Origin: an uncultured Clostridia bacterium
GTDB taxonomy: Bacteria; Bacillota; Clostridia; Christensenellales; CAG-917
Reading direction: 5' to 3'
Length of the DNA stretch: 64,000 nucleotides
NCBI GenBank assembly: GCA_947589475.1
Contig: CANQBO010000001.1
Coordinates: forward strand, 149,136 to 213,135
Shown: positions 2,818 through 20,764 of the stretch, one piece after another
How the letters are laid out: every line of letters starts with the position of its first letter
Numbering within the stretch: position 1 is the first letter of the stretch
Program-made: the position numbers and the translations under genes
The notes under the pieces: model-generated
What the model was told of the DNA's origin: nothing
The model's input: only the letters and a program-made list of their open reading frames with translations
Database searches by the model: none

Positions 2818-3066
2818 ATGAGAGAATTCTTTATCCCGTTCCGCTCGCGCTCCGAGGCGATACGCTTCTATGAAGCGCTCATAGGCTATGGCGTCACCTG
2901 CAAGATCATCAATACGCCGTCATCGGCAAAGGTGGGATGCGGGCTGTCGGTGAAGTTGTTCGCGCGCGATATGCAACTTGCGAGGATGGTGCTGACAAGA
3001 GGCAGATATCAAAGCGCGGTGGGCGTATTCTATTTTTCGCAGAACGGCTCCGCTATAAGGGTGTGA
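2818..3066 (+). CDS. DUF3343-like small protein (putative S/Se-handling partner of the desulfurase)
   Basis: An 82-aa product, MREFFIPFRSRSEAIRFYEAL...CKIINTPSSAKVGCGLSV, resembles the small family often paired with class V desulfurases. GGAGGAAGC RBS lies before ATG 2818. The upstream part of the track ORF was discarded. Confidence 0.6.
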   Translation: MREFFIPFRSRSEAIRFYEALIGYGVTCKIINTPSSAKVGCGLSVKLFARDMQLARMVLTRGRYQSAVGVFYFSQNGSAIRV

Positions 3067-3244
3067 CGGGGAAGTTGTGCCGCTCGGAGCTGTGCGGCTT
3101 AAGTTGCGTCTAAGGACTGCGCGGTCTTATTCGACGGCTTAAGTCGCATTTGCTTTCATACGCGCAACATCGGCATTTGCTTTGGGTTTTATTTTGCGTT
3201 TGTCAGCGCTTGCAAAAATCCTCGTCATATGCAATAATATTGCT

Positions 3245-4716: not shown

Positions 4717-6137
4717 ACGGCTCGAGACATTTGATGCCCGCGCGAGATCCCGCCGAGCGCATAAAGAATTTTGAGGAAGTGGCGCTCGGATACACTCGTG
4801 ACATAGCGCGCGAAGAGGCGGCAAGGTGTCTGAATTGCAAAAACGCGCCGTGCATGAAGGGGTGTCCCGTGGGCGTGCGCATTCCGGAGTTCATCGCAAA
4901 GGTCAAGGCGGACGACCTCGACGCGGCGGCGGAAATTTTGCATGCGGACAACAACTTGCCTGCGATATGCGGCAGGGTATGCCCTCAAGAGAAGCAGTGC
5001 GAGGGCTTGTGCGTAAGGGCAAAAGCGGGCGGCGCAATCGCTATAGGCGCGCTTGAACGCTTTGTCGCGGATTTCGCGCTGAGCAAAAAAGCGGACGCTT
5101 CTGGCGCGGCGCAAAACTCGTATAAAATAAAAAACGACGCTCAAAATGACGCGAACGTCGATTTTTCGGGAAAGAAGATCAAAGTCGCGGCGATAGGTTC
5201 GGGACCCGCGTCCCTCTCCTGCGCGGCGGACCTTGCAAGGCGGGGCGTACAGGTCACGGTGTACGAGGCTTTGCACAAGGCGGGCGGCGTGCTGGTGTAC
5301 GGAATTCCCGAATTCAGACTGCCTAAGGATATAGTCTTTAAAGAGATAGAGGGGCTTAAGGCGCTCGGCGTAAATATGGTCACGAACGTCGTCGTCGGCA
5401 AGACGTTGTTTATAGACGAACTGCTTGAGGAATACGACGCTGTGTTTATAGGAAGCGGCGCGGGACTTCCCATGTTTTTGGGAGTCGAGGGCGAAAATCT
5501 CTGCGGCGTATATTCCGCAAACGAGTATCTCACTCGCGTCAATCTCATGGGCGCGTACAAGGAGGGCGCGGTCACGCCCGTGCTTCGCGGGGGCAAAGTC
5601 GTCGTCGTAGGCGCAGGCAACGTGGCTATGGACAGTGCGCGTACTGCGCGCAGGTTGGGCGCGGAAGTTCGACTTGTTTACAGACGAAGTCGCGCGGAAA
5701 TGCCCGCAAGAGAGGAGGAAATTTTGCATGCGGAGGAGGAGGGAGTCATCTTCGATCTGCTTGTAAATCCCGTCAAGATTTTAGGGGACGAAAACGGCTT
5801 TGTCCGCGGGTTAAAACTTATCAAGATGAGGCTGGGCGAACCCGACGCGAGCGGCAGGCGCAGTCCCGTACCTATAGAGGACAGCGAGTACGACATCGAG
5901 GCGGACGAAGTCATAGTCGCTTTGGGGACTACTCCCAATCCGCTCATAAAAAACAGTATGCCGTCTCTTGAAGTCGGAAGGAAGGGAGTCATCTCCGTGG
6001 ACGGCGAGGGCAGGACGTCGATACCGCGCTTGTACGCGGGAGGAGACGCGGCGACGGGCGCGGCGACCGTCATTCTTGCAATGGGCGCGGGCAAGCGCGC
6101 GGCAAAGGCAATACTCGAGGACTTAAAGGTCAGGTGA
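4713..6137 (+). CDS. nfnB: NADPH-dependent glutamate synthase small-chain-like oxidoreductase (NfnB / GltD-like)
   Basis: N-terminal Fe-S cysteine motifs (CLNCKNAPC, CGRVCPQEKQCEGLC) and two dinucleotide-binding motifs (AAIGSGPAS, VVVGAGNVAMD). Confidence 0.75.
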   Translation: MNGSRHLMPARDPAERIKNFEEVALGYTRDIAREEAARCLNCKNAPCMKGCPVGVRIPEFIAKVKADDLDAAAEILHADNNLPAICGRVCPQEKQCEGLCVRAKAGGAIAIGALERFVADFALSKKADASGAAQNSYKIKNDAQNDANVDFSGKKIKVAAIGSGPASLSCAADLARRGVQVTVYEALHKAGGVLVYGIPEFRLPKDIVFKEIEGLKALGVNMVTNVVVGKTLFIDELLEEYDAVFIGSGAGLPMFLGVEGENLCGVYSANEYLTRVNLMGAYKEGAVTPVLRGGKVVVVGAGNVAMDSARTARRLGAEVRLVYRRSRAEMPAREEEILHAEEEGVIFDLLVNPVKILGDENGFVRGLKLIKMRLGEPDASGRRSPVPIEDSEYDIEADEVIVALGTTPNPLIKNSMPSLEVGRKGVISVDGEGRTSIPRLYAGGDAATGAATVILAMGAGKRAAKAILEDLKVR

Positions 6138-7563: not shown

Positions 7564-8361
7564 TTAGTCGGCGTCGTCCTTCAAAGAGGCTTCATATTTT
7601 AAAAGTTTGTTGTATTGCATGTGCCAATACAGTCTCTTTAGCGGCGGGAAAAGCGTCGAGAGAGTGGTGAGAAGAGGAAAAAGCGGGAAAGGATAGACTC
7701 GGTTTTTCCTTTCCTCTATGCCGCGGAGTATCGAATTTACGGCGCTCGAGAGCTTTTGTTTGGGGGTTGGCAACTCAAGCGCTTCAACATTTATGCCGTT
7801 CACTGCGGACGCGTAAAAATTTGTGTTTATCGCGACGGGATAGACCGCCGTCAGACATATGTTTTCGGGCAGTTCGGGGCGCACGGCTTCTTCAAAGGCG
7901 TTGAGGGCGGCTTTGGTCGCGCTGTACAGCGAGTAGCCGGGCACGGGTATTTTGCCTATCCCGGAGGCTACGATCACAAATTGACCGCTTCTGTTTTCGT
8001 TGAGCGCAACGAACTTTTTAAGGCTGTATATGGGCGAAAATACGTTTGTGGAAAATATGGCTTCTATCTTGTCGAAATTTATTTTGTCCATGCGCTCGAA
8101 ATAGCCGAAACCCGCGTTTGCTATGAAAACGTCGATATTTCCCAAAGTATCCTGCGCATACTCAAACAGGCTGTCCACGTTTTCCTTCTTCGAGATGTCC
8201 GAAACAAAAGTCTTTATCCCCAAAGCGGACAATTTTTCAAATTCAGAGTCGTCCTTGTCTGATGCGACGACGTTGTTTTCAATAGCGAGCTTGCAAGCAA
8301 GTTCATAACCTATGCCGCTGTTCGCGCCTGTCACGACGATATTTTTTCGTCTATCCTTCAT
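7564..8361 (-). CDS. short-chain dehydrogenase/reductase (SDR)
   Basis: Cofactor motif VTGANSGIG and catalytic YSATK (Tyr-x3-Lys). Confidence 0.85.
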   Translation of the reverse strand: MKDRRKNIVVTGANSGIGYELACKLAIENNVVASDKDDSEFEKLSALGIKTFVSDISKKENVDSLFEYAQDTLGNIDVFIANAGFGYFERMDKINFDKIEAIFSTNVFSPIYSLKKFVALNENRSGQFVIVASGIGKIPVPGYSLYSATKAALNAFEEAVRPELPENICLTAVYPVAINTNFYASAVNGINVEALELPTPKQKLSSAVNSILRGIEERKNRVYPFPLFPLLTTLSTLFPPLKRLYWHMQYNKLLKYEASLKDDAD

Positions 8362-9167
8362 TATTCAAACTCCTCCATGGAAATTTGTTCGGGACGGGAA
8401 TTCAGTTCGGCTTCAAATTCTTCCGCCATCCTAGGCGAAGAAAACGATCCGTTGCCGAGCGGAGTGAGCGTGAGCGCCGCAAGCAAGAGCGAGAGCGATC
8501 CTATCACGATGTAGTATATCTTCAGCGGGGTCAGAAAGGAAACGAGCACCAGCAGTACGCCCGAAAAGGCATATCCTTTAAAGTTAGAGCGCATGAGCAA
8601 CCTTTGAAATACGTCCTTTAGAGTGATCTTTTCTTTGACGGGCTTAAGTGGCGGGAGCGCGCCGTGCTTTTTGAGCAGTTTGTATACAGTCTTGACGCGC
8701 ACGGGGGTGAGGCGTACGCCCTCGAGTTGCGCGACGGTGTACGCTCGCCTGTCCACGCTTTTGCAGATCAGGAATATCCTGTCCCTGTCGTATTTTTTCG
8801 CGAGCAGCGCCGCCGCGCCTATATCCGAGATCCCAAGCGCGGAAAAGCGGAAATTTGCGATTATGATGCTCCTATCAAGCAAGATGCAGTTGTTCCCACC
8901 GCACATGTCCGGGTCCTTCAAGATGCCTTTGAGAAGGGATATGACATAGTCGTTGCCTCTTATTGCAAACTCCAAGGCGAGCCTGTCGTATGTATAGGGC
9001 TTGCCCGTCTTGACCCTGATATACTTCAGCGTTATCACCGCGATCAGCGTGAGCGTGCACGACATTATGAGCGCCGGCGCCGTCCCCGAGAATGCAAGCG
9101 CCGTCCATACGAACGTCAAAAGAAATGTTATCACCGTAAGCGAAATGTAATCGAATATCCTTGCCAT
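8361..9167 (-). CDS. hypothetical membrane protein (2 TM - soluble core - 2 TM)
   Basis: Hydrophobic helices at both ends flank a ~140-aa soluble core. Overlaps the downstream SDR gene by 1 nt. No family recognised. Confidence 0.55.
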   Translation of the reverse strand: MARIFDYISLTVITFLLTFVWTALAFSGTAPALIMSCTLTLIAVITLKYIRVKTGKPYTYDRLALEFAIRGNDYVISLLKGILKDPDMCGGNNCILLDRSIIIANFRFSALGISDIGAAALLAKKYDRDRIFLICKSVDRRAYTVAQLEGVRLTPVRVKTVYKLLKKHGALPPLKPVKEKITLKDVFQRLLMRSNFKGYAFSGVLLVLVSFLTPLKIYYIVIGSLSLLLAALTLTPLGNGSFSSPRMAEEFEAELNSRPEQISMEEFE

Positions 9168-9267
9168 ACGCCTATTGTTGCCCGAATTTTGCTTTTTTAA
9201 TGCGGAATTCGACTTATTTTTGAATGTCGCTATTGAAATAACGCGCTTTAAACTGTATAATGAAGAT

Positions 9268-10392
9268 ATGGCAAAGACATTGATATTCGGGGGAGCTTTC
9301 GATCCTCCTCACATAGAACACGTCGCCATGTGCAGGGCGGCGATGAAAGAGCTTGACATAGACAGGCTCGTCATCGTGCCGACATATCTCCCTCCGCACA
9401 AGAGCGCGGGAATGTTGTCCGTTGAAACGCGCGCGAAGCTCATCGCGGCGGCATTCGAGGATATGCGACCGGTTGTGGACTTCATAGAGCGGGAGCGCGG
9501 CGGAAACAACTATTCCGCGCTTGTTTTGCCCATACTCAAGGAAAAATACGGAGACATAATATATCTCGTCGGCGGAGATAGTCTGCAACATCTTAGCACG
9601 TGGTATAAGCCCGAAGAAGTGCTGAAGATATGTCCCATAGCCGTGTGCGGGCGCGAGGGGTATGAGGACGTCAAAGAGACAGCGCAAAGGGCGCAGAGCG
9701 AGTACGGCGGACGCATAATCCCGCTTGAATATATGGGCAGAGACGTCTCGTCGTCAATGCTCAGGGCGCGACTGCTCCTAGGCGAGGAGCCTGATACGTT
9801 GCCTAAAGCGGTTTTGGACATTATAGAGAATGAAGGGCTGTTCGAGCAGTACTTTCCGATGATAGAAAAACTTAGGGAATATCAAACGGATGAGTTGTTC
9901 GAGCACAGCAAGGCGGTCGTGAAGCGCGCGGTCGATTTCAACTCCAAACATGACCTCAAACAACCCTTTGAAAAGGTGTTTTTGGCGGCGCTTCTGCACG
10001 ACAATGCAAAACAGCGCCCGGCTCTCGACGGACTCAGCGTGCCAAAGGACGCTGTAGGCACTCCCGTTCTGCACCAATTTTTGGGCGCGGAAAAGGCGAG
10101 ACGGGATTTTGGGGTCACGGACGACGACATACTCGACGCGATACGTTACCATACGACGGCAAAGGCGGATATGACGGGGCTTGAAAAGTTGATATACACC
10201 GCGGACAGCCTCTCCGACGACAGAATGTACGCGCCTATCCCGGAGCTTAGGCGCCTCGCGATAGAGGACTTCGAGGCGGGATTTAAGGCGACGCTGAAGT
10301 TTACATACGACAAATTGCTCTCTAGGGGGAAGGGCATTTATCCGCTCACCGTCGAGGCATACGAATATTATATAATTCAAGGAAAAAAATAA
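9268..10392 (+). CDS. nadD: nicotinate-nucleotide adenylyltransferase fused to HD-domain YqeK-like hydrolase
   Basis: N-terminal nucleotidyltransferase (IFGGAFDPPHIEHV, ISSS-like VSSSMLR) continues in one frame into an HD domain (LLHDNAK...IRYHTT...TADSLSD). ATG 9268 was chosen over the longer track ORF. Confidence 0.85.
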   Translation: MAKTLIFGGAFDPPHIEHVAMCRAAMKELDIDRLVIVPTYLPPHKSAGMLSVETRAKLIAAAFEDMRPVVDFIERERGGNNYSALVLPILKEKYGDIIYLVGGDSLQHLSTWYKPEEVLKICPIAVCGREGYEDVKETAQRAQSEYGGRIIPLEYMGRDVSSSMLRARLLLGEEPDTLPKAVLDIIENEGLFEQYFPMIEKLREYQTDELFEHSKAVVKRAVDFNSKHDLKQPFEKVFLAALLHDNAKQRPALDGLSVPKDAVGTPVLHQFLGAEKARRDFGVTDDDILDAIRYHTTAKADMTGLEKLIYTADSLSDDRMYAPIPELRRLAIEDFEAGFKATLKFTYDKLLSRGKGIYPLTVEAYEYYIIQGKK

Positions 10393-10927: not shown

Positions 10928-11473
10928 TCAATGGCGTTGAGCCGTCTGATTTGCAGTCTGCTTCTCTCGCCTCAACTTCGCGATGTTGTAAAGTTCGATG
11001 ACGTCTTGAGCGGACATGTCGTCGTCTATCCTTCTGAAGATGTCGAGGTCAAAAGCAACGATTAAGTCGTCGCTTGAGATAAGTTCTTTGAGTTCGGCTT
11101 CCAGCGAGAGCATGGCTTTGTCGCGCTCGCTTTTTAGATAAAACGGCTTTGTGAGTACGGCGATGACTATGCATCCCTCCGCTTCCGCGACGCGCGCCGC
11201 CTGAACAAACTCTTTTTCATATACGCGGTTTATCGCCGTCTTTGCGCTGTCGCTTAGACCCGTAAGCGTTTGAGTCACATCCGTGCCGAAATACGGCAGT
11301 TTGAACATCTTTCCGTCCTCGTCGGGATACAGCGGCAAGGGCGTCGGCACGTCGATATTCGCATAGAGAATGTAGCGCTCGCTCTTATGCGCATACAGCG
11401 CGTCAAATTTGGCGCTTTCGACATAGCGCACTTCGCTTGTTTGATACATTTGTTGTATATAAGGCGTTTGCAT
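10928..11473 (-). CDS. hypothetical protein
   Basis: 181 codons from ATG 11473. The longer track form would run through the FMN riboswitch on the other strand. No family recognised. Confidence 0.5.
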   Translation of the reverse strand: MQTPYIQQMYQTSEVRYVESAKFDALYAHKSERYILYANIDVPTPLPLYPDEDGKMFKLPYFGTDVTQTLTGLSDSAKTAINRVYEKEFVQAARVAEAEGCIVIAVLTKPFYLKSERDKAMLSLEAELKELISSDDLIVAFDLDIFRRIDDDMSAQDVIELYNIAKLRREKQTANQTAQRH

Positions 11474-11548
11474 ATCCCTATTATGTTTCGGATTTTCAAA
11501 AATTTGCATAAATTGTTGACATGGCGTGCGGCAGGGTATAACATAATA

Positions 11549-11706
11549 TCTGCTTCGGGGCGAGGTGCAACTCCTCACCGGCGGTATAGTCCGCGAGCCG
11601 CAAGGCCGATCGGGTGAAATTCCCGAACCGACGGTATAGTCCGGATGATAGAAGCGGCATAAAAAATTCGTATTTGCCGTGACCCTCCCGAGCAGGAGGT
11701 TTTTTT
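11549..11706 (+). promoter_or_regulatory. FMN riboswitch (RFN element) with SD-sequestering hairpin and U-tract
   Basis: P1 is CUGCUUC...GAAGCGG. Conserved cores are CUUCGGGGCGAGGUG..ACCGGCGGUAUAGUCCGCGAGCC and GGUGAAAUUCCCGAACCGACGGUAUAGUCCGGAUGAUAGAAG. A CCUCC(11684-88)/GGAGG(11695-99) hairpin plus T7 then ends at ATG 11707. Confidence 0.9.
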
Positions 11707-13104
11707 ATGGAAAGCGAACAAATTTACGTATCGGACGAAGAGCGCTCGGCGGACCTCTCAACATATTGCGCGGACGTCGAAAATGACGAAGTTCAAACTT
11801 CGGGCGTCGCAAGCGCGGACGATTGGAATGATGACGTCAAGTGCGTCAAGCGCGATGAAAGCGCGGAGGAAGCTGCTCCCTCATACGACTGCGTAAAAGC
11901 GGTCGCGACAAATCAAAAGAGTGAAAAAAGCGAAGTTTCCACGCAGACGACTGAGAAAAAAACAGGCATTCTAAAGGCATTTTTCGCAAAACTCAAAGCG
12001 ACTTTGATAAAATTCAAAAGTCCGAGATTTTCCGCGGCATACGTGGCGAAAATGGCGGTCTTGACTGCGATTTCCTTTCTACTATACTATTTGGGACGAT
12101 TTGTCAAGTTGCCGTTTATGTTTCCGAGCTTCTTCGATATGCAGATCTCCGAGCTTCCCGCGCTTCTTGCGGGCTTCTCGCTGGGACCCGTCAGCGGATG
12201 TCTCGTCATTGTTTTCAAGTGTCTTTTGAAGTTGCCGCTTTCGTCTACGCTATACGTCGGCGAACTTACGGATATGTTGCTCGGAGTGATGTTTGTGTTG
12301 CCCGCCTCCCTCATATACAGACTGCGCCGCGACAAGGAGTCCTCAAAGAGCGGCATAAAGCACGCGCTCATCGGGCTTGCGGTAGGGAGCGTTCTGCTTA
12401 CGGGCGCGGCGATGCTGGTCAACGTCTATATTTCCGTGCCTTTTTATGTGGAGCTGTTCTTCCACGGCGATTTCGCAGGCATAGTCGGCATGCTCGGCTC
12501 GCTGTACAAGAATATAACGACGGAAACTTTCTACACCTATTATTTACTGCTCGGAGTGTTGCCTTTCAATCTTTTAAGATGTATAATAGTGTCTGCGCTC
12601 ACGTTCTTACTGTACAAGCGGCTGAGCGCGGCGTTGCATTGGGAGGGTACGAGCTTGCAGAAAAAAAATGCACTTCCGAACATTTCGGGCACCCACATCG
12701 TGCGCTCCGTCGAGGAGACATATAAACTTGCGGACAGCCTCGCGAGCGAGCTTGACGGCGGCGAGATCATACTGCTGGAGGGCGACCTCGGGGCGGGAAA
12801 GACGACGTTTACAAAGGGTCTTGCGAAGGCGCTCGGAGTGGAGGAGGAAGTCACAAGTCCGACATTCAGCCTGCTCAATGTCTATGAGAGCGGCAGGGTG
12901 AAACTCAACCATATCGACCTCTACCGCGTGGAAAGCGAGGAGGAACTTGCGGAGCTGGGAATAGCGGACAGCATTGACGGCGAGAGCGTCACGGTCATCG
13001 AGTGGAACAAGCTTTCGGGGTTGAAAGGGAAGATATACACCGTGAAGATAACTCTAGGCGAGGACGAAAATTCGCGCATATTCGACATCGGACTGTCGAT
13101 GTGA
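11707..13104 (+). CDS. fusion protein: acidic N-tail + RibU-like ECF S-component + TsaE ATPase
   Basis: Single 465-codon ORF. The membrane part resembles RibU (FDMQISELPALLAGFSLGPVSG; GVLPFNLLRCIIVSALTF). The C-terminal part is TsaE (ILLEGDLGAGKTTFTKGLA, TSPTFSLLNVY, HIDLYR). Confidence 0.8.
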   Translation: MESEQIYVSDEERSADLSTYCADVENDEVQTSGVASADDWNDDVKCVKRDESAEEAAPSYDCVKAVATNQKSEKSEVSTQTTEKKTGILKAFFAKLKATLIKFKSPRFSAAYVAKMAVLTAISFLLYYLGRFVKLPFMFPSFFDMQISELPALLAGFSLGPVSGCLVIVFKCLLKLPLSSTLYVGELTDMLLGVMFVLPASLIYRLRRDKESSKSGIKHALIGLAVGSVLLTGAAMLVNVYISVPFYVELFFHGDFAGIVGMLGSLYKNITTETFYTYYLLLGVLPFNLLRCIIVSALTFLLYKRLSAALHWEGTSLQKKNALPNISGTHIVRSVEETYKLADSLASELDGGEIILLEGDLGAGKTTFTKGLAKALGVEEEVTSPTFSLLNVYESGRVKLNHIDLYRVESEEELAELGIADSIDGESVTVIEWNKLSGLKGKIYTVKITLGEDENSRIFDIGLSM

Positions 13105-13167: not shown

Positions 13168-13737
13168 ATGACATGCTTGGCGATGGATACGACCTCATCG
13201 AAGCTCGCGCTTGCTCTCATCAAAGGGGAGGATATGTTCTGCCTCTCACGCGAGGTGGGAAAGAGCGGACATTCCGCGTTGCTTCTGCCCGCGATAGACG
13301 AGCTGATGAAAGAAAACGGAGTGGCTCCCGAGACGCTCGACGCGGTGGCAGTCAATGTCGGTCCCGGCTCTTTTACGGGGATAAGGATCGGCGTTTCGAT
13401 GGCGACGTCGCTTGCGTTCGCGACGGGCGCGAAGAGGATAGCCGTCACATCCTTCGACATCATCGCGTACAATAGAGGGCGAATAATCGCGGCGGTGGAC
13501 GCTGGACACGGCAACGTCTATGCCGCCGAGTGCGACGGAGGCAAGACCCTAAGCACGCGATTTATCGAGGCGGACGGCGATGATACGGCGCTTGAAGGCG
13601 CTATATACGAACCTATCGGAGACGCGGCGCGCACGCTTGCGGCTGTGGTCATGAAAAAAGCGGAAAGAGGAGAGTTCTCCGCCGTTTTCGAGCCTTTTTA
13701 TATGCGCAGATCGCAGGCGGAGAGGGAGAAAGAATGA
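13168..13737 (+). CDS. tsaB: tRNA t6A biosynthesis protein TsaB
   Basis: MDTTSSKLALAL... and GPGSFTGIRIGVSMA, typical of TsaB/YeaZ. Follows tsaE. Confidence 0.9.
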   Translation: MTCLAMDTTSSKLALALIKGEDMFCLSREVGKSGHSALLLPAIDELMKENGVAPETLDAVAVNVGPGSFTGIRIGVSMATSLAFATGAKRIAVTSFDIIAYNRGRIIAAVDAGHGNVYAAECDGGKTLSTRFIEADGDDTALEGAIYEPIGDAARTLAAVVMKKAERGEFSAVFEPFYMRRSQAEREKE

Positions 13738-14186
13738 GATTCGAGCGACTAAAGAGCAAGTATATTCCCGAAGTCGCGGCGATAGAACGCGAGGCGATGG
13801 CGGAGCCGTGGAGCGAGAATATGATCGCTTCCGAACTCGAAAACCCGAATTCGACGATTGTCGTCGGGATAGAGGGGGAGCGCGTCATCTGTTACGGCGG
13901 ATTCAGGCGCACCCTCGACGAGGCGGATATACTCAATATCGCCGTCATAAAAGATTTGCGCGGACAAGGAATAGGAAAAGGGCTTATGGCTCGTCTCATA
14001 TCCGAAGCAATGGCGTGCGGCGTGAGAGTCCTCACGCTTGAGGTGAGCGAACAAAATACGGCGGCGATCGCCCTCTACGCGGGGTTCGGCTTTGAAAGAG
14101 CGGGAGTACGAAAGAGGTATTACAACAATAGCTTCGACGCGCTCATCATGAGGCTGAAGCTCGGGGAGGGAGTTGACAAGACCTGA
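13734..14186 (+). CDS. rimI: ribosomal-protein-alanine N-acetyltransferase (GNAT)
   Basis: GNAT acetyl-CoA motif LRGQGIGKGLM. Has a 4-nt overlap with tsaB, in the canonical tsaB-rimI order. Confidence 0.8.
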   Translation: MRFERLKSKYIPEVAAIEREAMAEPWSENMIASELENPNSTIVVGIEGERVICYGGFRRTLDEADILNIAVIKDLRGQGIGKGLMARLISEAMACGVRVLTLEVSEQNTAAIALYAGFGFERAGVRKRYYNNSFDALIMRLKLGEGVDKT

Positions 14187-14922
14187 ATTTGAGGACAAAA
14201 ATTTGTCTATAGGCGCCCGAAATGTGCACGTGATGTGCGCGGGAGCGGGCGAGGACGTAGTGTTTTTGCATGGCTGGGGCTCTTCTGCCTCCGCCTTTTT
14301 GTTTGTCGCGGGGAGGCTTGCGGACAAATTTCGAGTCACGCTGATCGATTTTGCGGGCTTTGGCGGAAGCGACCCTCCCGAGTATCCATACGGAGTGTCG
14401 GACTACGCGGCGGACGTGTTGAGCGTAATGGGAATCTTGGGAATTTGTCGCGCGCACTTTGTTGGGCACTCATTCGGCGGGCGGGTATGCCTCGAACTTG
14501 CCGCAAAGCACCCCGACGCGGTGAGGAGCATATCCCTCGTGGACAGCGCGGGACTTAAGCCGAGGCGTGGCCCGAGATACTATGTCAAAATTTCGCTCCA
14601 CAAGTTCCTTAAAAAGTTGGGATTTAAGGGACTTGCGGGTTCTGCGGACTACAGGGCGCTCTCTTTCGATATGCAAAACACTTTCAAAAAAGTGGTGAAT
14701 TACGACCAGACTCCTCTGCTTTGTCACATTTTGTGCCCGACCGCAATATTCTGGGGGAGAGACGACCGCGTGACTCCCATGTATATGGCGCGTAAGTTCA
14801 AAAAGGGGATAGCGGACAGCGCGCTGTTTATGCTTAAAGGCGGGCACTTCGCGTTTGCAGAGGACGGAGCGACGTTTTATGCGGTCTTGCGGGCGTTTTT
14901 GAGCGGACAGGAGGGCAGATGA
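14173..14922 (+). CDS. alpha/beta-fold hydrolase
   Basis: HGWGSS oxyanion region and nucleophile elbow VGHSFGG. TTG start follows a GGGGAGGGAG RBS. Overlaps both neighbouring genes. Confidence 0.75.
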   Translation: MTRPEFEDKNLSIGARNVHVMCAGAGEDVVFLHGWGSSASAFLFVAGRLADKFRVTLIDFAGFGGSDPPEYPYGVSDYAADVLSVMGILGICRAHFVGHSFGGRVCLELAAKHPDAVRSISLVDSAGLKPRRGPRYYVKISLHKFLKKLGFKGLAGSADYRALSFDMQNTFKKVVNYDQTPLLCHILCPTAIFWGRDDRVTPMYMARKFKKGIADSALFMLKGGHFAFAEDGATFYAVLRAFLSGQEGR

Positions 14923-16520
14923 CGCTGCTTAGAGGGGATTGGTTTTATGTGGTTATCGTGGCGCTGGACGCGTTTTTCATGACGCGACCGTATCTATACG
15001 TCATACAGCAGGACAACTATAGGGTGGGCGAGATCTTCAAGTCGCGCAGACTTGCCTTTGTGTACATATTCGACATCTGCGCGGTCTCCGTTTTCACGGC
15101 GATATGGCTTGCGTTCTACTTCTTTTCTTCGCGCGCGTTCTGGGGCTTTGCGACGGTGCTCTTCTTTTTCATCGCTGAATTCGCGATGTACTTTATGGAG
15201 GACATTCCAAAGCGCAAAAAACCGCTCAAATATACCAAGAGAGCGGTGAGATGTTTGCTGTTTGTGACAGCATTTACGACTGCCGCGGTGATATGCTTGT
15301 TTGGCGTCGCCACGGCAAGCCTCAAGCAGAGCTACTTGAGATACCTTGTGTTGTTCTGTTTTCCGCTCGCATATCCGGCGCTGTTCTGCATAGGGGCGAG
15401 CGTCATCAACGTACTCGAGAGGTTGAACAACGCGAGATACGCGCGGCGCGCACGCAAAACGCTTGCAAAGCGGGGTGATCTCATCAAGATCGCCGTCACG
15501 GGAAGCTATGGCAAGACGTCCGTCAAGAATTTCCTTAAGGCGATGCTCGAAAAAAAGTACAACGTGCTCGCCACGCCCGCAAGCTACAACACTCCTATGG
15601 GCATAGCCAAAACGGTAAGCTCGCTTGATGAAACATACGACGTGTTTATCGCGGAATTCGGCGCGAGAAGAGTGGGAGATATACGCAAGCTTATGAAAAT
15701 CGTGAGGCCGTCGCTGAGCATTTTGACGGGGATAAACGCGCAACATCTTGAGACCTTCGGCAGTGAAAATAATATCGCGCGCGAAAAATGTCGTATTTTG
15801 GAGGTGGGAGAGCGCGGGCTGTGCGTTGTGAATTCCAAAGTCAAGGATAAGGCGGAATTCGCCCTCGAAAAGCTGAAAAAGAGACCGAACGTCATATATG
15901 CGGGAGTGATGGGCGACGTGTGCGCGCGGGATATTGCGATGAGCGAGGACGGCTCGAGCTTCAAACTTGCGTTTGCGGGGGAGGAATATCTCGTGAGGAC
16001 ATCTCTCATAGGCAGACACAACATCGAAAACATCGCGCTTGCGGCGGCGATGGCGCACGCGCTCGGGGTCGAGGCGCCTTACATACTCGAGGCGATAGAG
16101 GAACTGGAGCCTGTGCCGCACAGGATGCAACTTATCAAGGGAGAGGGGATAACGATCATCGACGACAGCTTCAACTCAAATCCCGACGGCGCGGTCTGCG
16201 CACTGGATACGCTCGCGCTTTTCCCGTGTCGCAAAGTGGCGCTCACTCCGGGGCTTGTGGAGCTTGGAGGAAAGGAAAGGGAAGAGAATTATAAGCTGGG
16301 ACTTAAGATGGCGGAAGTAGTAGACCTTGCGCTTTTGGTCGGAGTCAAGCGCACGGATCCGATAAGGCGGGGACTCCTCGACGGAGGCTTCGGCGGGGAG
16401 ATACACATCTACGACTCGCTCGACGGCGCGCGCGAGGACTTTAAATGCAGACTGCTCGCGGGAGACGTGCTGTTGATTTTGAACGACCTTCCCGACATAT
16501 ATGACGACATCGGAAGATGA
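14919..16520 (+). CDS. murF: MurF-type UDP-MurNAc-tripeptide--D-Ala-D-Ala ligase with N-terminal multi-TM domain
   Basis: Mur ligase P-loop VTGSYGKTS, ASYNTPMGIAKT (compare MurF NLNNxIGVP), central and C-terminal domains (PHRMQL, IIDDSFNSNP, LVELGGKE). The first ~170 aa are 4-5 hydrophobic helices instead of the usual N-domain. Confidence 0.75.
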   Translation: MTLLRGDWFYVVIVALDAFFMTRPYLYVIQQDNYRVGEIFKSRRLAFVYIFDICAVSVFTAIWLAFYFFSSRAFWGFATVLFFFIAEFAMYFMEDIPKRKKPLKYTKRAVRCLLFVTAFTTAAVICLFGVATASLKQSYLRYLVLFCFPLAYPALFCIGASVINVLERLNNARYARRARKTLAKRGDLIKIAVTGSYGKTSVKNFLKAMLEKKYNVLATPASYNTPMGIAKTVSSLDETYDVFIAEFGARRVGDIRKLMKIVRPSLSILTGINAQHLETFGSENNIAREKCRILEVGERGLCVVNSKVKDKAEFALEKLKKRPNVIYAGVMGDVCARDIAMSEDGSSFKLAFAGEEYLVRTSLIGRHNIENIALAAAMAHALGVEAPYILEAIEELEPVPHRMQLIKGEGITIIDDSFNSNPDGAVCALDTLALFPCRKVALTPGLVELGGKEREENYKLGLKMAEVVDLALLVGVKRTDPIRRGLLDGGFGGEIHIYDSLDGAREDFKCRLLAGDVLLILNDLPDIYDDIGR

Positions 16521-16697
16521 GAATAAAAACGTCATGACTATTCTAAATTATTGCATTTTTTAAAATACTTTTGCAAAATTTTGCGTATTTTCAGACGGAT
16601 ATTGCGCGCAAATTTCATTTTTATATGTTGAACGATGTTGAAGAGTCGCATATGCACACTTGAGCGCGTTTCGACATAATTTGTGGGGAGGTGGCGT

Positions 16698-17804
16698 ATG
16701 AAAAAGAAAATAGCACTGTTTTTCGGAGGTAGGTCGCTAGAGAGCGACATTTCGGTCATCACCGCGTTGCAGACGCTGGGCGCGATCGATAAGTCCGCGT
16801 ATGAAGCGGAGCCTGTATATATGTACGGCGGCAAGATGTATGTCGGCGGAGTAAACAAAATATCCGCGTTTTCGCCTTTCAATGAAGGAGAACACACTGT
16901 CGTGCATCTTGTATCGGGCGGGCTTTACGAGGTGAAGCGAGGAAAACTCAAGCGCAGATTTGTGCCCGACGTCGCTCTCATTTGCTGTCACGGCGGAGAG
17001 GGCGAGGGTGGAGTGTTGCAGTCGATGCTCGAATACAACGGCATACGCTACACCTCGTGTTCGCCGCTTGCGTCCGCGCTGTTGCTGGATAAACTCGCCT
17101 CGAAGAGGATGTTTGAGAGTCTGCTTTTCAACGTACTTCCGTACAGGGACGCGACTCATAAGGACTATATAGAGAACGGCAGTGCGGTCATAGACTCGCT
17201 CGAGGAGCTGGAATATCCCATAATAGTCAAACCCGCGCGCCTCGGAAGCAGCATAGGAATACGCGCCGCGCACAACAGGGAAGAGCTTGAATACGCGCTG
17301 GACATAGCGTTCAGTTTTGACAAGGAAGTCGTCGCGGAGCATATGCTCACGGACTTTATAGAGGTGAATTGCGCCGCGTACAGGGACGGGGAGGACATTG
17401 TCGTGTCCGAGACGGAGCGTCCCATTTCATGCGGCGATTTTTTGAGTTTCGAGGACAAATATATGGCAAACGGCAAGATGGGCGGAGGAGAACACAGAAT
17501 ACCCGCGGGCATAGGACCTGCGGAGCTTATCGTCAAAGCCGCCACCGAGCGCGTATATAAAGAACTATGTCTTGACGGAGTCATAAGAGCGGATTTTCTT
17601 GTGGACGGAGACTCTAAGGTCTATCTCAACGAGATAAACACCGTCCCCGGCTCGCTTGCGACATATCTATTCAGGGACATTTCGCACACGGATATGCTGT
17701 CCGCGCTCATACGCAACGCCTCATTGAAACAGCCGAGCGCGCCTGCGTCCTTCAAAACGGACGTATTGTCGCGATTTTCGGGAGGAGGAAAGCTTGCAAA
17801 ATGA
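16698..17804 (+). CDS. ddl: D-alanine--D-alanine ligase
   Basis: KIALFFGGRSLESDISV, an ATP-grasp core (IIVKPARLGSSIGI) and the C-terminal LNEINTVPGS. GGGGAGGTGG RBS before ATG 16698. Confidence 0.9.
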   Translation: MKKKIALFFGGRSLESDISVITALQTLGAIDKSAYEAEPVYMYGGKMYVGGVNKISAFSPFNEGEHTVVHLVSGGLYEVKRGKLKRRFVPDVALICCHGGEGEGGVLQSMLEYNGIRYTSCSPLASALLLDKLASKRMFESLLFNVLPYRDATHKDYIENGSAVIDSLEELEYPIIVKPARLGSSIGIRAAHNREELEYALDIAFSFDKEVVAEHMLTDFIEVNCAAYRDGEDIVVSETERPISCGDFLSFEDKYMANGKMGGGEHRIPAGIGPAELIVKAATERVYKELCLDGVIRADFLVDGDSKVYLNEINTVPGSLATYLFRDISHTDMLSALIRNASLKQPSAPASFKTDVLSRFSGGGKLAK

Positions 17805-18101: not shown

Positions 18102-18968
18102 TCATTCTTTCGCAAGGATATAGTCGCCGTTTATTTGCACCTTGTCCTTAAGCGCGAGCGGCAGGTAGATCCTCACTTGTTTTTCGGACGGCACCGACCT
18201 CAGCACGTCTTCCGCGAAGAAAAGCAACTTGTCAAGCGTCGTTTCCGGCGTTTCGGGCGCAGGCGTTTCTGAGATGGAGAAGCGGGTTATGGGCGGACTG
18301 TCGTTGGCGAATGTCAGTTGATCCTTGTAGGAGATGTACGCTTCGACCGTCAAAAGCCCCAACTTGTCGCTGTCGTCGGTGAAGATGACGATCACTTGTT
18401 TGGAGATGAGATCAACGTCTATTTCCTCAAGTGTGTAGTCATGAGCGGACGCATCCTCGACTGAGAAGGAGAGCGCGATCTTCTGCACGTCGCCAAAGTA
18501 GCCGTGATCTTCGCGGTAGGGGCGTATGGCGCTCACCCACTTGTCGCGGCTTATGCAACCGAGCGCGGCGGAAACTATGGTGAATATTGCGCCGAACAGC
18601 AAAAATGCAAGCGCGATGTTGGAAAGAGAAAAGTATGCCTTGAGCGGCTTTTTTCCATCCACTGTCGTCACATCCTCGGGAGGTTTGCGGTCGGGATATT
18701 CCCAGCCCATCTGCTTGTCGTAAAAGACGTAATAACGCTTGAAGGCAAGTATAAGTCCCAGCCCCGCGCCGATGAGTATCAGCCCTGCGCCGATGAGTAT
18801 GAGGCTTATCATTGCGGAATGAAATGCGGCAGCGGTCACAAAACAGTAGAATACCAAAACCGCGCCGCCGAAAAAACATGCCGCCGTAAGCGTCACTATG
18901 AGCACAAACGGTATGTTGATGAGCAGGCGTTTGAGAAAGCTGTTTTTCTGTGTGCTTATCCTTTTCAT
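18102..18968 (-). CDS. hypothetical membrane protein
   Basis: 288 aa from ATG 18968 (MKRISTQKNSF...). Four or five TM helices are followed by a soluble C-terminal domain. No family recognised. Confidence 0.55.
   Translation of the reverse strand: MKRISTQKNSFLKRLLINIPFVLIVTLTAACFFGGAVLVFYCFVTAAAFHSAMISLILIGAGLILIGAGLGLILAFKRYYVFYDKQMGWEYPDRKPPEDVTTVDGKKPLKAYFSLSNIALAFLLFGAIFTIVSAALGCISRDKWVSAIRPYREDHGYFGDVQKIALSFSVEDASAHDYTLEEIDVDLISKQVIVIFTDDSDKLGLLTVEAYISYKDQLTFANDSPPITRFSISETPAPETPETTLDKLLFFAEDVLRSVPSEKQVRIYLPLALKDKVQINGDYILAKE
18759..18800. repeat. 2 x 21-bp tandem duplication inside the membrane-protein gene
   Basis: CAGCCCCGCGCCGATGAGTAT / CAGCCCTGCGCCGATGAGTAT (1 mismatch), encoding LILIGAG-LILIGAG. 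Confidence 0.9.
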
Positions 18969-19138
18969 GACAATCATTATACTCGCGAAAAAATTCAAAG
19001 TCAAACCAAAAGAGAAAATCAAGTAAAGTCGCATATATTTCAGGGGTAGGACATATGCTCCTATAGACGTAATTCGACGAAGGTCGGGCAAATTCGCCCG
19101 CATTCGCGCGAATGGACGTGCTAGGATAGAGGAGTGAG

Positions 19139-20020: not shown

Positions 20021-20764
20021 ATGAGTTACGAACAAATGCAGAACAACAAGGTTTTCCTGACGGGAAAGGTAGTGAGCGAACCCGAGTTTTCTCACGAGAT
20101 GATGGGGGAGGGTTTCTATGATTTCTCTCTCGCGATCAAGCGTCTGAGCGGACAGGACGACATAATCCCCGTCACGATCTCCGAGAGGCTCATGGACGGC
20201 GTCGATTTTTCCGTCGGCGCGCAAATCGGCGCGGTGGGACAATTCAGAAGCTACAACAAACTTGTCGGGGACAGGAGCAAACTTGTGCTCAGAGTTTTTG
20301 TCAGAGAGCTTGTGGAGCCGAACGAGGACAACCCCAACATCATCGAGCTTGACGGTTTCGTGTGCAAACCGCCCATCTACAGGCAGACACCCTTCAAACG
20401 CGAGATCGCGGATATGCTCATCGCAGTCAACCGCGCGTACAACAAGTCCGACTATATCCCCGCCATCGCGTGGGGCAGGAACGCAAGATTTGCGGGCGGC
20501 TTCGAGGTCGGAAGCAAGGTCCATTTGACGGGGCGCATACAGTCGCGCGTCTATCAAAAACAGCTCGAGGACGGAGTGGTCGAGGAAAGGACGGCATACG
20601 AAGTGTCCGTGTCAAAACTCGAACTCACCGAGGCAAAACAGCCCGCTCATTCGGCGCACTACGGCTCCGAATCGGGAATGAGCGCAGAGTCAAGCGGCGA
20701 CGCGCCCATAGAGACTCATGACGAGGAGTTGCCGCCCATCGCTCCCGACTATAAACAACAATAA
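20021..20764 (+). CDS. single-stranded-DNA-binding-like protein with two OB-fold halves
   Basis: NKVFLTGKVVSEPEFSHE... and a second half, IELDGFVCKPPIYRQTP...VHLTGRIQSR, both have SSB/OB-fold character. GGAGG RBS. Confidence 0.55.
   Translation: MSYEQMQNNKVFLTGKVVSEPEFSHEMMGEGFYDFSLAIKRLSGQDDIIPVTISERLMDGVDFSVGAQIGAVGQFRSYNKLVGDRSKLVLRVFVRELVEPNEDNPNIIELDGFVCKPPIYRQTPFKREIADMLIAVNRAYNKSDYIPAIAWGRNARFAGGFEVGSKVHLTGRIQSRVYQKQLEDGVVEERTAYEVSVSKLELTEAKQPAHSAHYGSESGMSAESSGDAPIETHDEELPPIAPDYKQQ

Follow-up and report, generated by a model that had tools for sequence, protein, structure and literature searches.

The gene ribU has long been established as a target of flavin mononucleotide (FMN) riboswitches (PMC4418817). 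The ATPase TsaE, which serves the synthesis of the tRNA modification N6-threonylcarbamoyladenosine (t6A), is usually met in a different setting, as the first gene of tsaE-tsaB-rimI-tsaD operons such as those of Soehngenia longivitae and Terrisporobacter mayombei. Here we describe a locus in which these two arrangements are joined. It lies in a 64,000-nt stretch of DNA from an uncultured Clostridia bacterium (contig CANQBO010000001.1, positions 149,136 to 213,135 of the forward strand), which is called the window below. In this locus an FMN riboswitch precedes a single open reading frame (ORF) that encodes a RibU-type S-component of an energy-coupling factor (ECF) transporter and continues without a stop codon into a complete TsaE domain.

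In several respects the locus conforms to the ribU/ypaA units of Firmicutes, with a full RF00050 aptamer, an OFF-type hairpin followed by a U-run, and a RibU-type S-component encoded by the first gene. It differs from them in that the frame runs past RibU into TsaE, and in that the hairpin supplies the Shine-Dalgarno (SD) sequence with its 3' arm, the U-run leads directly into the AUG, and an acidic, disordered head of ~95 residues precedes the S-component. Likewise, the order of TsaE, tsaB, and rimI and the intact TsaE motifs are those of ordinary tsaE-tsaB-rimI-tsaD operons, but TsaE in the window has no ORF of its own, neither the cluster nor the 64-kb window contains tsaD, and the putative promoter, SD sequence, and start of the operon lie inside the upstream coding sequence.

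A similar pairing is seen where ribU and tsaE are neighbors without being fused. In S. longivitae (locus L002) and T. mayombei (L039), a riboswitch-led ribU lies directly upstream of a separate tsaE-tsaB-rimI-tsaD operon. The same two genes are adjacent in L001, a metagenome-assembled genome (MAG) of a Clostridia bacterium from the Hadza gut, and in inverted orientation in L003, a Christensenellaceae MAG. Unlike the window, all of these have a stop codon after ribU. In the two named species ribU is additionally followed by an intrinsic terminator, and a clear promoter (TGCTATAAT) precedes the separate tsaE of Soehngenia. A promoter for tsa genes that lies within an upstream coding sequence is also known from Mycobacterium tuberculosis, in which PtsaD was located experimentally within rimI of the alr-groEL1 operon (PMC5335608). 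The organism, gene, and position all differ from those of the window, whose putative internal promoter is deduced from synonymous constraint.

We propose, with a probability of roughly 0.6, that the locus is a composite in which an FMN-gated RibU-TsaE protein and an internally expressed free TsaE are both encoded by the same frame. The riboswitch and the fusion are close to certain as parts of this model. The features concerned, in window coordinates, are the following.

11516-11544, plus strand: sigma-A-type promoter of the riboswitch-led transcript (TTGACA, 17-nt spacer, TAACAT; 10/12 match).
11547-11660, plus strand: FMN riboswitch aptamer (RFN element, RF00050).
11654-11680, plus strand: candidate anti-sequestor hairpin, GCGGCA (11654-11659) pairing with UGCCGU (11675-11680); the role is a presumed one.
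11684-11706, plus strand: sequestor and weak terminator, CCUCC (11684-11688), 6-nt loop, GGAGG (11695-11699), U7 (11700-11706).
11707-13104, plus strand: RibU::TsaE fusion ORF, 465 codons in one uninterrupted frame.
11707-11991, plus strand: acidic, disordered, hypervariable head, residues 1-95, delimited by composition, predicted model confidence, and alignment.
12004-12648, plus strand: RibU-type ECF S-component, residues ~100-314, identified by PF12822, PDB matches, and a predicted helical bundle.
12559-12587, plus strand: putative internal sigma-A-type promoter (TTGCCT, 17-nt spacer, TATAAT; 10/12 match), with a predicted transcription start at ~12594.
12641-12657, plus strand: candidate internal SD sequence GGGAGGG (12641-12647) and in-frame TTG (12655-12657, codon 317), the possible start of a free 149-residue TsaE.
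12649-12702, plus strand: linker between S-component and TsaE, residues 315-332, of low model confidence and flexible.
12703-13104, plus strand: TsaE P-loop ATPase domain, residues 333-465 and stop codon, identified by Pfam, NCBIfam, and PDB matches.

Both halves of the fusion protein are readily assigned. The S-component half matches ECF_trnsprt (PF12822) over residues 113-303 with 80.1 bits (cut-off 30.7), covering profile positions 3-169 of 169. Among PDB sequences it matches RibU of Staphylococcus aureus (3P5N, 1.3e-14) and of Thermotoga maritima (5KC0, 6.9e-10; 5KBW, 4.9e-09). An AlphaFold2 model predicts six helices (residues 106-132, 140-158, 161-178, 184-208, 213-252, and 275-310) with moderate values, 50-80, of the predicted local distance difference test (pLDDT), and the S-component ends with the clade-typical YKRLSxxLHW(E/D)G. 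The C-terminal half matches TsaE (PF02367) over residues 333-452 with 122.7 bits (cut-off 26.6) and the TsaE equivalog TIGR00150 with 116.9 bits (cut-off 60.1). Its PDB matches are 5MVR, 6N9A, and 1HTW, the TsaE proteins of Bacillus subtilis, T. maritima, and Haemophilus influenzae. This domain is modeled with pLDDT 80-90, and its Walker A motif LGAGKTT (L361, G362-T367), TSPTF (T383-F387), H402/D404/Y406/R407, and IEWNK (I431-K435) are invariant in 22 homologues.

The remaining segments are far more variable. The head of ~95 residues contains 22 D+E versus 11 K+R, has a pLDDT of ~30, and is predicted to be disordered. It is unconserved, and is short or missing in many homologues. The linker region falls below pLDDT 50 (residues 305-323) and varies in length and sequence among homologues. 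Typical TsaE is a free-standing soluble protein of ~140-160 residues, and no separate ORF of this kind exists here; tsaB and rimI lie directly downstream, and tsaD is not adjacent. The fusion ORF is a variant architecture rather than a typical member of the TsaE family.

Such an architecture could mean that a TsaE-like domain was recruited to RibU function, perhaps as a regulatory or energizing ATPase of a solitary S-component, and serves t6A synthesis only in part or not at all, with another tsaE elsewhere in the genome or none. An in-frame fusion has persisted despite deep divergence (27 of the best 150 representatives at 50% identity), and the linker motif LHW(E/D)G is conserved. In addition, neither tsaD, tsaC, nor a second tsaE was found within the 64-kb window, and none of the ORFs scanned there encodes an ECF energizing module (EcfA, EcfA', EcfT). 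We nevertheless regard this recruitment as scarcely probable. All TsaE signature motifs are invariant, the TIGR00150 equivalog cut-off is exceeded, and tsaB and rimI follow as they do in ordinary tsaE operons. The LHW motif is native to the clade's unfused S-components. The linker differs among homologues and is predicted to be flexible, and the model shows no confidently docked position of TsaE against RibU (predicted template modeling score 0.36; low-confidence inter-domain geometry). The genes of ECF modules normally lie at another site, and one module serves several S-components.

The fusion is not confined to one assembly. Four contigs, which come from two or more independent assemblies, encode the identical 465-residue product, and at least 120 clusters at 90% identity extend down to 56% identity, with all 120 among those listed carrying both Pfam domains. 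In an exhaustive HMMER search of representatives at 50% identity, 27 of the best 150 had one matched stretch running through both halves, at identities as low as 35%. Metagenomes from the human gut, pig, rumen, and other sources yielded 46 fused loci whose 3' end is complete. The fusion recurs in a large clade of uncultured gut and rumen Clostridia, and a cluster look-up showed that its products are unnamed in the source databases. More divergent fused proteins have unrelated linkers, and the fusion is therefore either ancient or recurrent.

These data also bear on the possibility that an error of assembly or sequencing, such as an indel, created the single ORF by joining two genes. A run of eight A residues (12661-12668, plus strand) near the junction makes this conceivable. 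It lies just after the TTG, in Gln-Lys-Lys-Asn codons, and such runs are typical downstream of start codons as well as prone to indels. However, slippage in this run and other artefacts are ruled out by the identical protein in independent assemblies and by the 46 fused loci, which come from many samples and assemblers and have differing junctions that are all in frame. The alternative frame through the A-run contains only a 77-residue Arg-rich ORF. We consider the probability of an artefact negligible.

Upstream of the fusion gene, a genuine FMN riboswitch is present. RF00050 aligns over model positions 1-138 of 138 with 112.9 bits (gathering score 66.2; E 1.6e-25) and is the sole Rfam match across the 64 kb. 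The P1 stem is formed by CUGCUUC (11550-11556) and GAAGCGG (11651-11657), with one G-U pair. The -10 hexamer of the leader promoter ends 3 nt before the aptamer match, and each of the 21 related loci examined has a perfect TTGACA with a spacer of 16-18 nt ahead of its aptamer. The aptamer itself is 46 nt upstream of the RibU-type ORF on the same strand, a placement kept in related loci. An RF00050 aptamer precedes each of the 17 fused loci with enough upstream sequence, and also precedes the unfused ribU of L001, L002, L039, L128, and L129.

Several of these elements had been pointed out in an earlier, sequence-only reading of the window. Its RFN aptamer, its P1 pairing, its CCUCC/GGAGG hairpin with the SD sequence and U7 just before ATG 11707, and its uninterrupted RibU::TsaE frame are all borne out, the aptamer and the two domains by the Rfam, Pfam, and TIGR00150 searches, and the frameshift or assembly error that it wished to see excluded can be dismissed on the grounds given above. 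The acidic low-complexity stretch of ~100 residues that it described exists as well, although it is an N-terminal head and not a tail.

The expression platform is predicted to be a structure alternative to P1, in which an SD-containing hairpin and U7 are opposed by a competing hairpin. The CCUCC/GGAGG hairpin has a calculated stability of -7.7 kcal/mol; its GGAGG is the SD sequence of ATG 11707, which the U7 tract abuts. When P1 is enforced during folding, an outer helix (11667-11682 with 11705-11718) encloses this hairpin and covers the AUG too. The candidate anti-sequestor overlaps the 3' strand of P1, and is mutually exclusive with both P1 and the extended sequestor helix. It forms in a co-transcriptional fold when the 5' strand of P1 is blocked, and for 17 of 19 related platforms folding predicts an equivalent hairpin with another sequence.

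Homologues carry a hairpin and U-run at the same place. In many relatives this is a strong stand-alone terminator, with the SD sequence and AUG 40-60 nt further downstream. In the subclade of the window, the 3' arm of the terminator became the SD sequence and the AUG abuts the U-run, which explains the extra N-terminal head. As a separate matter of annotation, the database ORFs of some relatives (P0010, P0012, P0013, and P0112) begin upstream of or inside the riboswitch, and that of locus L087 starts at 3001, with the aptamer at 3043-3161. The N-terminal ~50-90 residues of such ORFs are therefore translated riboswitch or leader, and represent an annotation artefact.

Part of the evidence for separate expression of TsaE comes from within the RibU coding region. 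A promoter-like element is overprinted on the RibU codons for V-L-P-F-N-L-L-R-C-I-I; 37 of the 46 fused loci carry it, and all unfused loci lack it. The homologous elements match the consensus at 9-11 of 12 positions, and the internal element scores equal to the clade's conserved riboswitch promoters. Synonymous sites were compared among 23 promoter-bearing sequences sharing less than 95% nucleotide identity (mean pairwise identity 69%). In the 173 codon columns with a conserved degenerate amino acid, the mean frequency of the major codon was 0.63, and only five columns were fixed at 95% or more: TAT 12541, GTG 12556, TTG 12559, AGA 12577, and TGT 12580. All five fall within 12541-12582, on or beside the hexamers (permutation p ~2e-5).

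The hexamer codons for Leu (TTG), Arg (AGA), and Cys (TGT) are identical in 23/23 sequences, and the Ile codon is ATA in 19/23; the remaining four have Thr ACA in place of Ile, by which the box still reads TACAAT. The spacer codons drift, as do other Leu and Arg columns. For example, the invariant Arg at 12619 is encoded by six different codons and the invariant Leu at 12622 by five. Synonymous-site constraint thus provides strong sequence evidence that TTGCCW-N17-TATAAT is preserved inside the RibU codons, and the functioning of this element as a promoter is, on that basis, well supported.

The sequence TAT TAT TTR (12538-12546, plus strand), which lies just 5' of the -35 hexamer, is also nearly fixed (TAT 20/23, TAT 23/23, TTG 19/23). 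The hexamers do not explain this conservation, which may reflect an AT-rich UP-like element. This feature might suggest that the conservation of 12541-12587 is real but has another cause, such as a regulator site, an RNA structure, or a translational pause element, and the constraint is indeed visible at the level of sequence only. Even so, the fixed positions coincide with both hexamers at a spacing of 17 nt while the spacer drifts, the change from Ile to Thr still yields TACAAT, and the element co-occurs with a start codon downstream. A cause other than a promoter is, in our judgment, very unlikely.

That start codon would be the TTG at 12655. The GGGAGGG sequence is spelled by TGG GAG GGT (W-E-G), ends 7 nt before the TTG, and lies ~70 nt 3' of the internal promoter. 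No in-frame ATG is present at the junction in the window. However, among the 23 nonredundant sequences of the promoter-bearing clade, codon 317 is ATG in 14, TTG in seven, and another codon in two. Six of the seven TTG cases have GGGAGGG (with GAG), the seventh (L172) has GGGAAGG (with GAA), and GGGAYGG goes with ATG. Downstream of the start codon come A-rich Lys codons; the Lys codon that corresponds to the A8 run is AAA in 20 of 23 homologues. Across lineages, the promoter and a junction start co-occur (Fisher p 0.001, or 0.008 when a start shifted by one codon is counted). We grade internal initiation at TTG 12655 as moderately supported by these sequence patterns.

Initiation at this position is not proposed for all fusions. 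In 30 distinct junction DNAs, codon 317 is ATG in 16, TTG in six, and another codon (CTC, CTG, ATA, TTC, or GCA) in eight. A universal internal start was rejected because these 8/30 lack ATG or TTG, and the claim is limited to the promoter-bearing clade. The conserved LHW(E/D)G was also considered as a motif kept solely for its ability to encode an SD sequence, and this idea was rejected as well: unfused S-components end in LHW or LHK too, and the Asp variant (GGGAYGG) makes a poor SD sequence. LHW(E/D)G is a protein feature that doubles as an SD sequence when the residue is Glu (GAG).

In-frame internal initiation is a familiar means of producing long and short isoforms, as in Escherichia coli ClpB, IF2, and CheA. 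The window would resemble these cases in that one ORF with an internal in-frame SD sequence and start gives a full-length and a C-terminal product. It would differ in that one product is a fused membrane transporter and the other a soluble enzyme from an unrelated pathway, and in that the short form has a promoter of its own.

Under the composite model, an uptake unit of FMN riboswitch and ribU would have had its frame run on into the tsaE of a neighboring tsaE-tsaB-rimI operon, and the tsa operon would keep its own expression signals, now embedded at the end of the ribU frame. At high FMN concentrations, P1 would close, the SD hairpin and U7 would form, and the outer helix would cover the AUG, such that no long RibU-TsaE is made. 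The riboswitch would be an OFF switch that acts mainly on translation and perhaps partly by termination. At low FMN concentrations, the hairpin at 11654-11680 would form instead and permit initiation at ATG 11707, giving a membrane S-component that carries TsaE on a flexible cytoplasmic tether of ~20 residues. The termini of S-components are cytoplasmic in RibU structures, which would turn the TsaE domain toward the cytoplasm. Whatever the FMN level, transcription would start at ~12594 and translation at TTG 12655, to yield free 149-residue TsaE together with TsaB and RimI. The output would be constitutive free TsaE, to which a tethered copy is added only under flavin limitation. This tethered copy is probably a tolerated passenger. 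The fusion may persist because only codons 315-316, which lie between the end of RibU and the internal start, could become a stop without damage to either product.

A number of observations weigh against the composite model. The activity of the promoter and internal initiation are both deduced from sequence patterns. The internal SD sequence is predicted to be mostly paired (probability of being unpaired 0.17-0.19), the SD sequence of the ATG subclade is weak (GGGAYGG), and in loci L115 and L118, which retain the promoter, TTC or CTC stands where the start codon would be. The enrichment of TTG among junction Leu codons is modest (p ~0.03), and the sequences compared are phylogenetically related. 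On the side of the riboswitch, minimum free energy folding does not yield a clean switch: the full-length leader with P1 blocked still favors the sequestor, and the alternative hairpin is seen in the co-transcriptional fold only, such that thermodynamic folding alone does not reproduce switching. Finally, nine fused loci (L084 and L119-L126) lack the internal promoter, and most of them lack a junction start, yet riboswitch and fusion are kept. The riboswitches of L119-L121 and L125 have a strong terminator, and L084, L121, and L125 are devoid of an SD sequence and start at the junction as well. The persistence of these promoter-less loci implies that a TsaE made only in fused, riboswitch-gated form seems viable, unless a second tsaE exists.

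Some of these points would favor an arrangement in which TsaE of the window is made only as the C-terminal domain of the fusion from the riboswitch-gated start, the internal element is inactive, and the supply of the t6A ATPase is tied to flavin. The ORF is single and its junction has no in-frame ATG, a riboswitch lies upstream of every fused locus tested, the internal SD sequence is predicted to be paired, and L084, L121, and L125, with their strong riboswitches of the terminator type and no recognizable internal promoter or start, indicate that a fused-only state can persist. We nonetheless find this arrangement rather unlikely for the window. Synonymous constraint keeps a sigma-A promoter matching at 10-11 of 12 positions just where a tsaE promoter is needed, GGGAGGG and TTG are present here with ATG at that codon in most relatives, promoter and start co-occur, and tsaE of unfused relatives is transcribed from its own promoter. 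Furthermore, TsaE is essential in many bacteria (PMC12632869), and its shut-off whenever flavin is plentiful would be costly.

The sequence-only reading had found no Met codon or ribosome binding site at the junction, and had considered an independently translated TsaE unlikely and its synthesis to be under flavin control. The absence of an in-frame ATG is confirmed, but GGGAGGG stands 7 nt before an in-frame TTG. Given the constrained internal promoter, the SD sequence with TTG or ATG, their co-occurrence, and the separate tsaE promoter in unfused relatives, the broader claim is probably wrong for the window. In lineages without the promoter or start (L084 and L121-L126), and conceivably in the organism of the window too, the sole TsaE might be anchored on RibU in the membrane and gated by FMN, or TsaE might have acquired a role in riboflavin uptake. 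We hold this to be distinctly unlikely. If it were true that the sole TsaE is anchored and gated in this way, the capacity for t6A synthesis would be coupled to flavin status both physically and through regulation. Should the promoter-less genomes prove to contain a single tsaE, the stricter claim would hold there.

The unfused loci suggest how the fusion arose. In L001, an unfused ribU lies upstream of tsaE-tsaB-rimI with only 8 nt between the ribU stop codon and the tsaE ATG, and this arrangement is plausibly an intermediate. The clade's unfused S-components end in ...YKRLSxxLHK or LHWE..., exactly where the protein of the window reads on (...YKRLSAALHWEGTSLQKK...). These matching ends, together with the unfused neighbors, indicate that the fusion is a read-through of an old adjacency. 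A RibU neighbor was found in only four of 80 taxonomically broad tsaE loci (L001, L002, L003, and L039). The contig scan made for taxonomy was dominated by P-loop pattern matches, and the same four loci were the informative ones. L003 shares the syntenic block of the window. Its ribU and riboswitch (5028-5877, minus strand) are inverted and divergent from a free tsaE of 137 residues, and the ribU-tsaE neighborhood is thus kept there in the other orientation.

Each component of the locus belongs to a known family, and the combination is a widespread fusion for which no published description was found. In the literature searched, an open-access subset, no report was found that links TsaE to RibU or to an FMN riboswitch, and the fusion is not mentioned in a review of the diversification of t6A enzymes, a survey of riboflavin transporters, or a survey of S-component fusions. 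The novelty claimed by the sequence-only reading stands to this extent, but the architecture, though unnamed, is common in metagenomes.

If the fused protein is functional, it would be a natural membrane-tethered TsaE, with a bearing on how freely TsaE has to cycle on and off TsaBD during t6A synthesis, and t6A genes would join the FMN riboswitch regulon in widespread uncultured gut Clostridia. The embedded promoter would be a clean example of how regulatory signals can come to overlie a conserved coding sequence for membrane helices once genes have fused, detectable purely by synonymous-site constraint. Gene callers report one protein, and in some relatives an ORF that runs through the riboswitch; databases thereby hide a likely second product and the true N-termini. 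If the fusion is only tolerated as a by-product of adjacency, inference from domain fusions (the Rosetta stone approach) would tie riboflavin transport to t6A in error.

The genes that follow the fusion are those of a tsa operon.

13168-13737, plus strand: tsaB, 189 residues (TIGR03725, 124 bits); its position is kept in all related loci.
13734-14186, plus strand: rimI, 150 residues, overlapping the tsaB stop codon (TIGR01575, 117.9 bits).

TsaB of the window is short, with 189 residues compared with 231-238 in Soehngenia and Terrisporobacter. Its Pfam TsaD-family match is limited to residues 33-122, and the C-terminal part of the protein is apparently shortened throughout the clade (186-205 residues). 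Downstream of rimI (14173-17804), an alpha/beta hydrolase gene, murF, and ddl are found instead of tsaD, in the window as in the whole fused clade.

The window has a GC content of 52% and is otherwise an ordinary chromosomal stretch of a spore-forming Firmicute. Its other genes include obg, nadD-HD, rsfS, murF, ddl, tig-clpP-clpX, the dcw cluster, spoIIGA-sigE-sigG, and spoIVB. The closest labeled relatives are MAGs named "uncultured Clostridia" and "uncultured Christensenellaceae", and synteny places the locus among uncultured Clostridia close to the Christensenellaceae. Related loci with enough flanking sequence share a block comprising nadD-HD, rsfS, a small ORF of unassigned function, the riboswitch, the fusion, tsaB, rimI, the alpha/beta hydrolase gene, murF, and ddl.

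This block contains a second fusion of adjacent genes. A single ORF of 405 residues (9175-10392, plus strand) joins NadD (cytidylyltransferase-like, PF01467) to an HD domain (PF01966) that we take to be YqeK-like, given the adjacency of yqeJ and yqeK in B. subtilis. A NadD-HD product of two domains and 350-403 residues is found at the same position in those related loci whose sequence reaches this point.

Between rsfS and the riboswitch lies a minus-strand ORF without a Pfam match (10928-11578). As called mechanically, it enters the riboswitch; the gene called on an identical contig has 181 residues (~10928-11473). In related loci the same slot is occupied by an ORF of 86-181 residues without a Pfam match, which is on the plus strand in L003 and L090. 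Two other minus-strand ORFs, of 268 residues (8361-9167) and 333 residues (18102-19103), likewise have no Pfam match. The first has the appearance of a membrane-associated protein, and an ORF of similar size (262-276 residues), again without a Pfam match, is found upstream of nadD in relatives. Lastly, a protein of 247 residues (20021-20764, plus strand) has an SSB domain at residues 107-201 only, and either carries an N-terminal extension of ~100 residues of unassigned nature or has a mis-set start.

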